From NCBI RefSeq assembly GCF_013315695.1, contig NZ_CP054356.1: a stretch of 64,000 bases of DNA, one strand, 5' to 3'. The DNA is from Escherichia coli. GTDB lineage: Bacteria > Pseudomonadota > Gammaproteobacteria > Enterobacterales > Enterobacteriaceae. Shown piece by piece: positions 32,936 through 42,170 of this stretch (position 1 is the stretch's first letter; each line of letters starts with the position of its first letter). Under the pieces are notes generated by a model. It was not told the origin of the DNA. It saw only the letters and a program-made list of their open reading frames with translations, and did no database searches. Made by a program: the position numbers and the translations under genes.

Positions 32936-33157
32936 GTGAGTGATGAAGCCGATGAAGCATATTCAGTGACAGAACAACTGACCATGACAGGAATAAACCG
33001 GATACGCCAGAAAATAAATGTTCATGGTATTCCTGTTTATCTCTGTGAAGCATGCGGAAATCCTATTCCGGAAGCCCGGAGGAAAATATTTCCCGGTGTG
33101 ACGTTGTGCGTTGAATGTCAGGCGTATCAGGAAAGGCAGAGGAAACACTATGCATAA
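32936..33157 (+). CDS. traR: TraR (DksA-like zinc-finger protein)
   Basis: 73 aa with CEACGNPIPEARRK..CVEC four-Cys motif. Confidence 0.9.
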   Translation: MSDEADEAYSVTEQLTMTGINRIRQKINVHGIPVYLCEACGNPIPEARRKIFPGVTLCVECQAYQERQRKHYA

Positions 33158-33165
33158 ATCAGAAA

Positions 33166-33627
33166 ATGAAAAAAATAGATTTTATTCTGGATGAGCATGA
33201 GCAGATATTCAGAAAACAGGGTTCTTTGTGTATGGCACTGGGTAAGGGCTTTTTAGTTATAGCTATTCTTTGTGGTGTTGCCACATTCTGTGTTTCTGGC
33301 CTGTATCTGAAATCCCTGTGCCTGTCCGTTGCCTGCTGTTGTGGGGTATTCAGTCGTATTTTTAATTATTACAGCGTACCGGAGGAATCACGCATGGTAC
33401 TCAGTCGTCAGGAATTACTCCGGCTTATGCGTCTGACTGAAGACGTACCAGATGTGAGACAGGAACTGCTTAACCGTTTGTTGTCCGGTAAAAAACTGAC
33501 TGGTCGGGATGAACAGGATATCCGGCGTCTCTGGCAGGAGAAAGTGGATGCAATGCAGGAGTCTGCCACCCGTCAGCGTGAACAGGATACTATTCGGAAG
33601 TTTACTGAAGGGAATAAATCCGAATGA
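33166..33627 (+). CDS. Hypothetical membrane protein (accessory ORF between traR and traC)
   Basis: ATG 33166 (MKKIDFIL..), TM segment, charged C-terminus; AT-rich relative to flanking tra genes. Confidence 0.5.
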   Translation: MKKIDFILDEHEQIFRKQGSLCMALGKGFLVIAILCGVATFCVSGLYLKSLCLSVACCCGVFSRIFNYYSVPEESRMVLSRQELLRLMRLTEDVPDVRQELLNRLLSGKKLTGRDEQDIRRLWQEKVDAMQESATRQREQDTIRKFTEGNKSE

Positions 33628-33706
33628 GAATCTGCAGTGTTTTATGACCTCATAAGTTAACTGAAGGGATATTCAGTGATTAATATACAAGCGGAGATAA
33701 TAAAGA

Positions 33707-33925
33707 ATGCATACCTTTATTTTTCTTGTGCTGATAAAAAATATTAACGGTGGCGGAAGCTGGAATATTACACCCATGCCAAATACGGACGTATGCGTGC
33801 AGGTTCTTCGGACAATCGAAGCACATGGCGGCAGGGGCTTTGGAAATACAGGGGAGTGTATTGAAGTTAAAACAAATGAACCTTTGAACAGCGTGATGGA
33901 AACACTAAATGGTGGTGGGCAATGA
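33707..33925 (+). CDS. Hypothetical small protein (72 aa)
   Basis: ORF with N-terminal hydrophobic segment in traR-traC insert. Confidence 0.4.
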   Translation: MHTFIFLVLIKNINGGGSWNITPMPNTDVCVQVLRTIEAHGGRGFGNTGECIEVKTNEPLNSVMETLNGGGQ

Positions 33926-34300
33926 GTGCTTACTGCTTCGAAGGAAAATGAAATGAAGTCGATATATTTAAAATCTGTTCTGGCTTTTATATTTGTTGGC
34001 GTTATGGCTATGATTGTATGTATTCCTTTTTACATCGTTTACCTTGCGCAACAACCTGCAACACCAGAACAACTGACAGAGATTTTACAGGAAACTCCCT
34101 GTGCAGCAGAAGCATTTCAGGAGACACTTAATTATCAGTCTGAACCTTTAACACTTGGTAAGGCAAATAAAATCGCATCAGAATGCAGAAAAAGAAACGA
34201 AATGGCAGAGGTGAAACGTGTAAGAGAAAATGAGCGCAATAAGATTCGCGAAAAACAAATTCAGGCATTAAATGATGCTCATTCAGTAAAGGAACGTTAA
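33926..34300 (+). CDS. Hypothetical membrane protein (124 aa)
   Basis: ORF with TM segment and Lys/Arg/Glu-rich C-terminus in traR-traC insert. Confidence 0.45.
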   Translation: MLTASKENEMKSIYLKSVLAFIFVGVMAMIVCIPFYIVYLAQQPATPEQLTEILQETPCAAEAFQETLNYQSEPLTLGKANKIASECRKRNEMAEVKRVRENERNKIREKQIQALNDAHSVKER

Positions 34301-37439: not shown

Positions 37440-38068
37440 GATGCCGGGGGCTGATTGCCCTGCTGATATGGGGGCAGAGTGTGGCCGCCGCCGATCTTGG
37501 CACCTGGGGCGATCTGTGGCCGGTAAAGGAGCCGGACATGCTGACGGTGATCATGCAGCGCCTGACGGCACTGGAGCAGTCCGGTGAGATGGGCCGGAAA
37601 ATGGATGCCTTTAAGGAGCGGGTGATCCGCAACAGTCTGCGGCCCCCTGCCGTGCCCGGTATCGGACGCACGGAGAAATACGGCAGCCGGTTGTTTGACC
37701 CGTCCGTCAGACTGGCTGCGGATATCCGGGATAACGAAGGGCGGGTGTTTGCCCGTCAGGGTGAAGTGATGAATCCGCTGCAGTATGTGCCTTTTAACCA
37801 GACGCTGTATTTCATCAATGGCGATGATCCGGCGCAGGTGGCCTGGATGAAACGCCAGACGCCGCCCACACTGGAGAGCAAAATTATCCTCGTGCAGGGC
37901 AGTATCCCGGAGATGCAGAAGTCTCTGGACAGCCGTGTTTACTTTGACCAGAACGGTGTGCTCTGCCAGCGCCTCGGCATTGATCAGGTCCCGGCACGGG
38001 TGAGCGCCGTTCCCGGCGATCGCTTCCTGAAGGTGGAATTTATTCCGGCAGAGGAGGGCAGAAAATGA
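37436..38068 (+). CDS. traW: Pilus assembly protein TraW
   Basis: ATG overlapping trbI stop (ATGA); signal peptide MRCRGLIALLIWGQSVAAA; track ORF starts upstream at 37322. Confidence 0.85.
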   Translation: MRCRGLIALLIWGQSVAAADLGTWGDLWPVKEPDMLTVIMQRLTALEQSGEMGRKMDAFKERVIRNSLRPPAVPGIGRTEKYGSRLFDPSVRLAADIRDNEGRVFARQGEVMNPLQYVPFNQTLYFINGDDPAQVAWMKRQTPPTLESKIILVQGSIPEMQKSLDSRVYFDQNGVLCQRLGIDQVPARVSAVPGDRFLKVEFIPAEEGRK

Positions 38069-39057
38069 AGCGAAGCCTGTGGCTGCTGATGTTATTCCTT
38101 CTCGCCGGTCATGTCCCTGCAGCGTCTGCGGATTCTGCCTGTGAGGGGCGTTTTGTAAACCCGATCACGGATATCTGCTGGAGCTGTATTTTCCCGCTCT
38201 CGCTGGGCAGTGTCAAAGTCAGTCAGGGTAAGGTCCCCGACACGGCGAACCCGTCGATGCCCATTCAGATTTGTCCGGCACCGCCGCCGCTGTTCAGGCG
38301 TATCGGGCTGGCCATTGGTTACTGGGAGCCGATGGCGCTGACGGACGTCACCCGGTCACCGGGATGCATGGTTAACCTGGGCTTCAGCCTGCCGGCTTTT
38401 GGTAAAACGGCACAGGGAACGGCGAAAAAGGATGAGAAGCAGGTGAACGGGGCGTTCTATCACGTTCACTGGTACAAATACCCGCTGACGTACTGGCTGA
38501 ACATCATCACATCGCTGGGCTGTCTGGAAGGTGGTGACCTGGATATCGCTTATCTTTCTGAAATTGACCCCACCTGGACGGACAGCAGCCTGACCACCAT
38601 TCTCAATCCGGAAGCTGTCATCTTTGCCAATCCGATAGCACAGGGGGCCTGTGCAGCAGATGCCATTGCCAGCGCCTTTAATATGCCTCTCGATGTTCTG
38701 TTCTGGTGTGCCGGTTCGCAGGGAAGTATGTACCCGTTCAATGGCTGGGTGAGTAATGAGTCCAGTCCGTTGCAGTCCTCCCTGCTGGTCAGTGAACGCA
38801 TGGCGTTCAAACTACACCGTCAGGGCATGATTATGGAAACCATCGGGAAAAATAACGCCGTCTGTAATGAATATCCGTCCCCAATCCTGCCCAAAGAACG
38901 CTGGCGTTATCAGATGGTGAATATGTATCCGGACAGCGGGCAGTGCCATCCGTTCGGGCGCAGTGTGATGCGCTGGGAGACGGGAAAAAATCCGCCCAAC
39001 ACAAAGAAAAACTTCGGCTACCTGATGTGGCGTAAACGTAACTGTGTATTCCTGTAA
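38065..39057 (+). CDS. traU: Pilus assembly protein TraU
   Basis: 330 aa with signal peptide; order. Confidence 0.9.
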   Translation: MKRSLWLLMLFLLAGHVPAASADSACEGRFVNPITDICWSCIFPLSLGSVKVSQGKVPDTANPSMPIQICPAPPPLFRRIGLAIGYWEPMALTDVTRSPGCMVNLGFSLPAFGKTAQGTAKKDEKQVNGAFYHVHWYKYPLTYWLNIITSLGCLEGGDLDIAYLSEIDPTWTDSSLTTILNPEAVIFANPIAQGACAADAIASAFNMPLDVLFWCAGSQGSMYPFNGWVSNESSPLQSSLLVSERMAFKLHRQGMIMETIGKNNAVCNEYPSPILPKERWRYQMVNMYPDSGQCHPFGRSVMRWETGKNPPNTKKNFGYLMWRKRNCVFL

Positions 39058-39080
39058 ATCATTTTAATGAATAAGAGGAA

Positions 39081-39392
39081 ATGAAAATGGCAACAATGGA
39101 CAGTAAATATATTCAGCACCTCAGGAAAATAAGTGCTGTGCTGCTCAGGCTGATAAGCAGAACATTAAAATTATTTCCTTTTGGTCTTGTAATGGTGCCC
39201 GTTATATTATTTTATTTTGCACCTGACAGTTTTCTCGCTGAAATTATTCATGAATGGAAGAAGGCAGATATATCAGAACAAGTGACACTTGTCAGATTAT
39301 ATCTGAAGGTGACATTTACATGTGCGTTTATGGCTGTTTTTCTCAATTATCTTTTTTCTGATGAGTTCATGCCTGTAAATAGCAGAAAGTGA
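39081..39392 (+). CDS. Hypothetical small membrane protein between traU and trbC
   Basis: 103 aa, RBS AGAGGAAATGAAA, two hydrophobic segments. Confidence 0.45.
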   Translation: MKMATMDSKYIQHLRKISAVLLRLISRTLKLFPFGLVMVPVILFYFAPDSFLAEIIHEWKKADISEQVTLVRLYLKVTFTCAFMAVFLNYLFSDEFMPVNSRK

Positions 39393-40039
39393 GAAATATC
39401 ATGAACCGGAAAATATTTGCACTTTTTGCTCTGACAGCAGGGATGCATCTTGCTGTTCATGCTTCAGAAAATGTGAACACACCTGAAAACCGCCAGTTCC
39501 TGAAGCAGCAGGAAAATTTAAGCAGACAACTGCGAGAGAAACCTGACCATCAGCTGAAAGCCTGGGCGGAGAAACAGGTGCTGGAAAACCCCCTTCAGCG
39601 TTCAGATAACCATTTTCTGGATGAGCTGGTTCGTAAACAGCAGGCTTCGCAGGACGGGAAACCCCGGCAGGGTGCCCTGTATTTTGTGTCGTTTTCCATT
39701 CCCGAAGAGGGGCTGAAACGGATGCTGGGCGAAACCCGGCACTACGGTATTCCGGCCACACTGCGGGGCATGGTGAACAATGACCTGAAGACCACCGCTG
39801 AAGCCGTGCTGTCCCTGGTGAAAGACGGCGCGACTGATGGTGTTCAGATCGACCCGACGCTGTTTTCACAGTACGGCATTCGCAGTGTACCGGCACTGGT
39901 GGTGTTCTGCAGTCAGGGATACGACATCATCCGGGGAAACCTGCGGGTCGGCCTGGCGCTGGAGAAAGTGGCCGCCACGGGTGACTGCCGGCAGGTGGCT
40001 CATGATTTACTGGCAGGGAAAGGAGATTCCGGGAAATGA
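39389..40039 (+). CDS. trbC: Pilus assembly protein TrbC
   Basis: Size, signal peptide, order. Confidence 0.85.
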   Translation: MRNIMNRKIFALFALTAGMHLAVHASENVNTPENRQFLKQQENLSRQLREKPDHQLKAWAEKQVLENPLQRSDNHFLDELVRKQQASQDGKPRQGALYFVSFSIPEEGLKRMLGETRHYGIPATLRGMVNNDLKTTAEAVLSLVKDGATDGVQIDPTLFSQYGIRSVPALVVFCSQGYDIIRGNLRVGLALEKVAATGDCRQVAHDLLAGKGDSGK

Positions 40040-41909: not shown

Positions 41910-42170
41910 ATGATGAAAGTCATATTCACGTCGAACCGTTTTATTGATTTTCTTATCCGGCTTTTGATTACAGCGATTGTCATTTCCCCGGTAATTATCT
42001 GGTCGTGGGATACGGTAAAAGAAACCACTGCAGGTGAGATGCTTGCTGCTTGTTTTGTTATTTTTTACTCCGGTGTGCTCCTGTTTATTCTGTATTTTTG
42101 TTTTTCTGCCCTGACTGGCCTGCAGAAAGATGATGAAAGAAAAAATGATGAAAGGAATGAAGATGAATAA
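41910..42170 (+). CDS. trbE: Conjugal transfer protein TrbE
   Basis: 86 aa membrane protein; order. Confidence 0.8.
   Translation: MMKVIFTSNRFIDFLIRLLITAIVISPVIIWSWDTVKETTAGEMLAACFVIFYSGVLLFILYFCFSALTGLQKDDERKNDERNEDE

Follow-up and report, generated by a model that had tools for sequence, protein, structure and literature searches.

A small hydrophobic protein gene between traU and trbC of F-like plasmids: a conserved, dispensable tra-operon gene carried as deeply diverged alleles

Introduction

Why should a gene sit between traU and trbC in one F-like plasmid and not in F? In F the trbC start follows the traU stop after only 8 nt, with no open reading frame (ORF) between them. In the DNA analysed here, a stretch of 64,000 nucleotides from Escherichia coli (assembly GCF_013315695.1, contig NZ_CP054356.1; hereafter the window), the same two genes are separated by 343 bp of AT-rich sequence (34% GC), and a small ORF fills the gap. 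A sequence-only reading of the window had drawn attention to this frame, had remarked that the interval is minimal in F, as it indeed is, and had suggested that the ORF could be an unannotated small membrane component. Here we ask whether the frame is a gene, whether it is new, what kind of protein it would make, and what that protein might do for a plasmid whose relatives manage without it.

Results

An open reading frame fills the gap between traU and trbC

The features of the locus are as follows.

38065..39057, + strand: traU, the upstream neighbour (98% amino-acid identity to F, 100% to pHNMPC51), with its TAA stop at 39055–39057
39056..39460, + strand: low-GC segment (33–37%), delimited by composition profile, alignment to F and blastn breakpoints
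39073..39079, + strand: Shine-Dalgarno motif AAGAGGA, read from the sequence
39081..39392, + strand: small ORF in its longest frame, from the first in-frame ATG, 103 aa, TGA stop (ORF list)
39087..39392, + strand: likeliest coding sequence, from the second ATG, 101 aa plus TGA, equal to RefSeq WP_000224418.1 and with the start used in the pKF3-70 annotation
39401..40039, + strand: trbC, the downstream neighbour, with an ATG start and 212 aa as annotated in F, R100 and pKF3-70

The coordinates and the 103-aa length given by the earlier reading agree exactly with the ORF list, and the ribosome-binding site that it called plausible is there. Which ATG does this site serve? Its GAGG core lies 2 nt before the ATG at 39081 and 8 nt before the ATG at 39087, and because of this spacing the second ATG is the better start. 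The 101-aa form is therefore likely to be the product rather than the 103-aa form, and it is the one that RefSeq annotates. An AGGA/GAGG-type motif lies 7–9 nt before the start in 10 of 13 alleles examined, namely in all F-like alleles except the pSLT type, in which the motif abuts the annotated GTG start, and in three of the six IncX-type or unplaced alleles.

The ORF is closely packed against its downstream neighbour. It stops 8 nt before the trbC start, and the translation-initiation region of trbC lies inside its 3' end. The mechanical ORF list extends trbC upstream to a GTG at 39389; judged by the annotations of F, R100 and pKF3-70, the ATG at 39401 is most likely the true start. No promoter-like site was found in 38500–39900, the sole terminator-like site in that range lies inside trbC, and there is none between traU and trbC. 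Since nothing of either kind parts the ORF from traU or trbC, it probably shares a transcript, driven by the tra operon promoter, with the pilus and mating-pair genes.

Comparison with F shows the ORF to be part of a larger swapped segment. Homology between the window and F ends at the traU stop codon and restarts near codon 21 of trbC (39461); the intervening segment (39056..39460) measures 405 bp in the window and 70 bp in F, and holds the ORF together with the first ~20 trbC codons, which encode the signal peptide. The swap thus also brings a TrbC signal peptide different from that of F. Against pHNMPC51, downstream homology restarts at the trbC start codon itself, 39401. The GC content of the ORF interval (33–37%) stands against about 55% on both flanks. 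At the next junction downstream the window has no insert: traN begins at 40036, before trbC has ended at 40039.

A 12-nt near-repeat, ATTCCTGTAAAT at 39048–39059 (the end of traU) and ATGCCTGTAAAT at 39369–39380 (near the end of the ORF), has its copies 321 nt apart and brackets most of the inserted segment. We considered it as an insertion scar and set the idea aside: a deletion from one copy to the other would leave a junction unlike that of F, and the repeat is probably a matter of chance.

The frame is conserved as protein and is a genuine gene

A short, AT-rich frame without a match to any known family could be a chance opening in a spacer or regulatory region. Its length already speaks against this: at 34% GC stop codons are frequent, and when the 343-bp interval was shuffled 5000 times with its dinucleotide composition preserved, an ORF of at least 101 aa appeared only 6 times. 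Nor does the interval look regulatory, as it contains no Rfam match near threshold and, as noted above, no promoter-like site. More telling is the conservation of the frame in other plasmids. A tblastn search with the ORF product found family members in 2013 plasmid records, 1155 of them at ≥95% identity and 849 at <60%. Coverage reached at least 80% in 1757 of the 2013, and full-length intact copies dominate.

In six of six F-like plasmids (pKF3-70, R100, pHNMPC51, p67_89, pRHB33-C09_2 and a pSLT-type plasmid) the slot directly after traU is occupied by a family member. The R100 copy is 97% identical to the window protein; the others are far more distant (pRHB33-C09_2 50%, pHNMPC51 44%, p67_89 42%, pSLT type 32%), and each is an annotated ORF. 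Diverged homologues such as these are recognisable at the protein level only, and they occupy the same position. Apart from the R100 copy, the F-like alleles are 28–50% identical to one another, and although they differ so much the reading frame is kept; seven alleles align over their full length, with 11 invariant residues. By the Nei-Gojobori method pN is smaller than pS in all diverged comparisons, with omega about 0.3–0.5 where dS is near saturation, and for a pair of IncX-type members omega is as low as 0.10. When 1.84 billion cluster representatives were searched with a family profile, 46 matched, 27 of them with E < 1e-10 and the best at 4e-41, which indicates a family that is narrow but real.

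This protein conservation across alleles effectively refutes a chance frame, a reading to which we give almost no weight. The frame thereby also passes the check proposed by the earlier reading, for which a frame not kept in related plasmids would have told against a gene. On the same comparisons, the ORF is shown to be a genuine protein-coding gene, selectively maintained, for a small hydrophobic protein predicted to fold as a helical hairpin.

The gene is already catalogued, without a family or a function

The gene is not new. Its exact 101-aa sequence is RefSeq WP_000224418.1, a 'hypothetical protein' that is annotated in all RefSeq records examined, so the suggestion that the component had escaped annotation does not hold. 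The R100 version is WP_000224416.1. The exact-sequence cluster has 1034 members on more than 1000 contigs, and the window allele occurs in 824 of 5426 complete E. coli genomes (15%), almost always on a plasmid; the window-allele records listed among these genomes are all labelled hypothetical protein. UniProt carries sister alleles under the name 'Conjugative transfer protein' (Q08JF9, Q93GM9 from pSLT, G9G1B9 and L0ARK8), and a few NCBI entries are named 'putative yfdA'. All of these are the same protein or family in the same position after traU, and none has a family model. The gene is thus an ordinary conserved hypothetical one that has been present in R100-type sequences for decades.

Searches for a more informative relative gave little. 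The best Pfam match, DUF3810, scored 11 bits where the cut-off is 28, and no NCBIfam match exceeded 14 bits, the cut-offs there being 300. A profile search of the PDB gave a best E of 0.21, which is not significant, and Foldseek with the AlphaFold model gave best E-values of 7.2 in the PDB and 2.1 in BFVD, a collection of predicted viral structures. Membership of a known anti-phage defence or phage superinfection-exclusion family was considered and rejected: PADLOC gave no match, PHROGs gave one weak match (E 0.05, for the pSLT allele alone), and the viral-fold search gave nothing significant.

In the literature searched the gene is not mentioned; the ORF is absent from 'Five shades of F', from a 2026 preprint on transfer-operon diversity, and from the Tra subunit-swap, pEntH10407 and pRS218 papers, and a search for 'yfdA' together with traU found no paper.

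The product is predicted to be an inner-membrane hairpin with a conserved loop

Two hydrophobic helices had been proposed from the sequence, and both hydropathy and modelling bear them out. Kyte-Doolittle peaks fall at residues 29–47 (2.02) and 70–88 (1.74) in the numbering of the 103-aa form, and an AlphaFold2 model, built from an 18-sequence family alignment, has helices at residues 6–44, 47–59 and 62–90 with a mean pLDDT of 85.9. The segments of the 101-aa protein are listed below.

39087..39167, + strand: N-terminal basic amphipathic helix, residues 1–27 (AlphaFold helix 6–44), predicted cytoplasmic
39168..39221, + strand: predicted first transmembrane helix, residues 28–45 (hydropathy 2.02), with conserved P31 and F42-Y43-F44
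39222..39308, + strand: inter-helix loop, residues 46–74, with the short helix 47–59, predicted periplasmic
39309..39356, + strand: predicted second transmembrane helix, residues 75–90 (hydropathy 1.74; AlphaFold helix 62–90)

In the model the amphipathic helix runs on into the first hydrophobic helix. Residues 1–27 contain five Lys or Arg and one Asp, and a sixth positive charge comes from Lys28, on the margin of the first hydrophobic helix. Across the family both tails carry a net positive charge, and the segment between the helices ranges from neutral to acidic. Taken with the hydropathy, this charge bias predicts, by the positive-inside rule, an inner-membrane protein with both termini in the cytoplasm and the loop in the periplasm.

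Conservation concentrates on P31, F42-Y43-F44, P46, W57, I/V66, L73-K74 and F81, of which P46, W57, I/V66, L73 and K74 belong to the loop, and the length of the loop hardly varies: 16 of the 18 sequences in the family alignment have 29 residues. Among the 19 unique sequences of the class of more than 95% identical variants, just one site is clearly multi-allelic: residue 59, in the loop predicted to be periplasmic, where the Lys59 of the window (39261–39263) gives way to Asn, Met or Ser. The other positions that vary within the allele are scattered, show few changes and form no clear hot spot in the loop.

The gene is dispensable, and its alleles move as a cassette

Does F-type transfer need this protein? 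Some 1439 records have an uninterrupted F-type traU–trbC junction, and a family member is present in 2013 of about 4400 records with such traU/trbC genes (about 46%). We considered and rejected the ORF as a core or essential component of the F-type machine, because F and these 1439 other records run traU directly into trbC; on this distribution, basic F-type transfer is shown not to need the ORF. Of the suggested small membrane component, then, the real gene for a small hydrophobic protein stands and the core part does not.

The alleles themselves have a history different from that of their neighbours. Between the window and pHNMPC51 the substitution rates are these.

traW, window versus pHNMPC51: dS 0.013, dN 0.002
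traU, window versus pHNMPC51: dS 0.05, dN 0.001
ORF, window versus pHNMPC51: dS 1.06, dN 0.49

With a dS of 1.06 for the ORF against 0.05 for traU and 0.013 for traW, the alleles are much more ancient than the plasmid backbones around them. TraU and TraW are 100% identical between plasmids whose ORF alleles differ by more than 50%, a contrast that also tells against a tightly co-adapted structural subunit and so against the word component in its narrower sense. Together, the diverged alleles and near-identical flanks show that the alleles are swapped as a cassette by homologous recombination in the conserved flanks. Two plasmids preserve the footprints of such exchange between allele types: in NZ_LR130558 (locus L002, 1785–2914) a duplicated traU 3' end separates two diverged tandem alleles, and in p67_89 (locus L006, 2489–3290) a single allele precedes a traU 3' remnant and then an F-type traU–trbC junction.

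In other plasmids the traU–trbC and trbC–traN intervals also gather further accessory ORFs, IS1 and HNH endonuclease genes. One record, CP088603.1, has IS1A inside the traU–trbC interval, so the slot tolerates disruption. At the trbC–traN junction an HNH endonuclease gene is found in pHNMPC51 (L004, 4043–4862), in the pSLT-type plasmid (L005, 3463–3882) and in p67_89 (L006, 3925–4743); it looks like a free-standing homing-endonuclease insertion in the tra operon. A 123-aa hypothetical ORF accompanies it in pHNMPC51 and p67_89, and the pSLT-type plasmid has the endonuclease alone. The window itself has another accessory-gene slot at 32936–34300: the stretch from traR to traC holds several extra ORFs of the R100 type, whose counterparts in R100 are annotated as hypothetical proteins. 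Among the R100 ORFs, YfhA, after traR, is absent from F (pEntH10407 paper).

Such a permissive slot invites the thought that the ORF is a functionless passenger, a foreign remnant that is kept since trbC translation has come to need its 3' end. The foreign base composition and dispensability in F would fit, as would the unrelated ORFs, the IS1 and the nearby homing-endonuclease genes that the slot collects, and the trbC initiation region does lie within the 3' end of the ORF. A remnant kept for its last codons would not, however, be expected to retain its frame, length, ribosome-binding site and loop length across alleles whose synonymous divergence is saturated, nor to show pN below pS throughout, the omega of 0.10 among IncX-type members, and the predominance of full-length intact copies (1757 of 2013 records). 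We regard a passenger as improbable.

The family extends to a second class of conjugation machine

The profile search also found distant members in IncX-type transfer clusters, which are VirB-like rather than F-type. One, the protein P0062, matches that of the window at 39% identity across 72 aa and has a 77% identical relative in the IncX5 plasmid pBK31567. Both lie downstream of virB11 and a coupling-protein gene and upstream of genes for a thermonuclease and topB; also upstream of the member is a Cag12-family gene in pBK31567 and a TrbM/KikA-family gene on the P0062 contig. The members P0084 and P0067 likewise adjoin VirB8–11 and Cag12 genes. An IncX-type member at ≥80% coverage occurs in only 58 plasmid records. 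These placements show that the family occurs in two unrelated classes of conjugation machine.

The small ORF is not the only gene with this double distribution. A 253-aa ORF in the traU–trbC hot spot of pRHB33-C09_2 (L003, 1050–1811) is 44% identical (E 8e-67) to a 257-aa ORF that lies two genes downstream of a family member on an IncX-like contig (L010, 4824–5597); accessory genes are thus shared between F-like and IncX-like plasmids. In some F-like plasmids a soluble-looking companion of 150–173 aa directly follows the small ORF (L004, 2860–3381; L003, 2835–3287). The two versions of the companion are 30% identical, the window has none, and in the database protein P0052 membrane protein and companion are fused in frame. 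Neither the companion, nor the 253- and 257-aa ORFs, nor the IncX neighbours matched an informative family or a solved relative.

Discussion

What would a dispensable hairpin protein do in a conjugation operon? Several small proteins of tra operons resemble it in part. TrbE (86 aa, encoded between traN and traF) is likewise small, from low-GC DNA, with two hydrophobic helices and in the same operon; unlike the ORF, it is present in F, and it is reportedly non-essential for F transfer. The window copy, trbE at 41910–42170, gives the operon a second small hydrophobic product with two helices, again from DNA of low GC content (about 40%). Kinship between the two was rejected, BLASTP giving no alignment and hhalign a probability of 0.3%. 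TraS, the entry-exclusion protein of F-like plasmids, is small, hydrophobic and inner-membrane, and comes from low-GC DNA in deeply diverged alleles among otherwise similar plasmids, all of which can be said of the ORF product by resemblance of pattern. The location differs, TraS being encoded between traG and traT and the ORF after traU, 10 kb upstream of traS; the window plasmid already has traS and traT, and hhalign gives a probability of 0.4% against the window TraS, so kinship was rejected here too. Comparable too are the extra ORFs of pED208 (orfX1–4) and those between traR and traC of R100, likewise uncharacterised accessory ORFs in tra operons and absent from F. The likeness is one of setting, and the present family is much more widespread and reaches into IncX-type clusters. 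Other F-family plasmids also carry uncharacterised ORFs within their tra regions (bioRxiv 10.1101/2023.12.05.570194).

TraQ offers a different kind of precedent. It is the F pilin chaperone, a 94-aa protein of the inner membrane encoded in the same operon; its target is itself a membrane protein, and F pilin accumulation requires it. By analogy, the ORF product could be an assembly helper, a small inner-membrane chaperone or adaptor for, say, the pilin pool or TrbC export, that raises piliation or transfer in R100-type plasmids. It is encoded among the pilus-assembly genes traW, traU and trbC, 8 nt before the last of these; by hydropathy and model it is an inner-membrane hairpin like pilin itself; and the swapped segment carries a different TrbC signal peptide as well. 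A pool of pilin in the membrane is common to F-type and IncX-type systems, and could serve as the partner in both contexts. The uncharacterised tra-region ORFs of pED208 have been suspected of TraQ-like roles, yet they are not needed for pilin accumulation (bioRxiv 10.1101/2023.12.05.570194). Several observations pull the other way. F needs TraQ, whereas it lacks the ORF, and F and the 1439 other records without it are transfer-proficient types; alleles more than 50% different sit beside identical TraU and TraW with no sign of co-adaptation; and the family is rare among IncX plasmids. We therefore consider an assembly helper rather unlikely, if worth keeping in mind.

The reading we prefer, tentatively and at somewhat less than an even chance, is that of a portable accessory membrane protein of the 'moron' type. 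The product would be made alongside the transfer apparatus and inserted in the inner membrane, its tails facing the cytoplasm and its conserved loop the periplasm, and it would act only when the apparatus is expressed, with a partner not confined to machines of the F type. There it may guard or tune the donor envelope, or mediate conflict between plasmids or between pilus and phage. An accessory factor fits better than a co-adapted subunit because deep polymorphism is found beside unchanging TraU and TraW, and also because of the presence/absence variation, the foreign base composition and the independence from machine type. A structural subunit of the secretion machine is, by the same evidence, probably not what the gene encodes. 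The suggestion of a guarding or conflict role in particular draws on the polymorphism, the presence and absence, the foreign composition and the occurrence with two machine types, and the high divergence of the alleles could instead reflect merely weak constraint on a small membrane protein.

A bolder version, which we hold to be doubtful, would make the gene an overlooked specificity or immunity determinant of conjugative plasmids, its diverged, recombining alleles held under balancing selection. Each allele might then block a different pilus-dependent phage, exclude or inhibit a different competing plasmid, or shield the donor from a different transfer-linked envelope insult, and the determinant would work in both F-type and VirB-type (IncX) systems. 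If so, a new player in plasmid conflict would be present on roughly half of the IncF resistance and virulence plasmids.

Read more soberly, the gene does not represent a new kind of system, and only its cross-system distribution and its ancient, recombining alleles are mildly surprising. In E. coli, Klebsiella, Salmonella and Shigella, resistance and virulence genes are carried mainly by F-like plasmids, whose tra operon is among the best-studied bacterial gene clusters, yet this operon holds a conserved gene without a name, a family model or a phenotype. Dispensable, carried as ancient recombining alleles, and present in an unrelated type of machine, this gene is an inexpensive target for a knockout.
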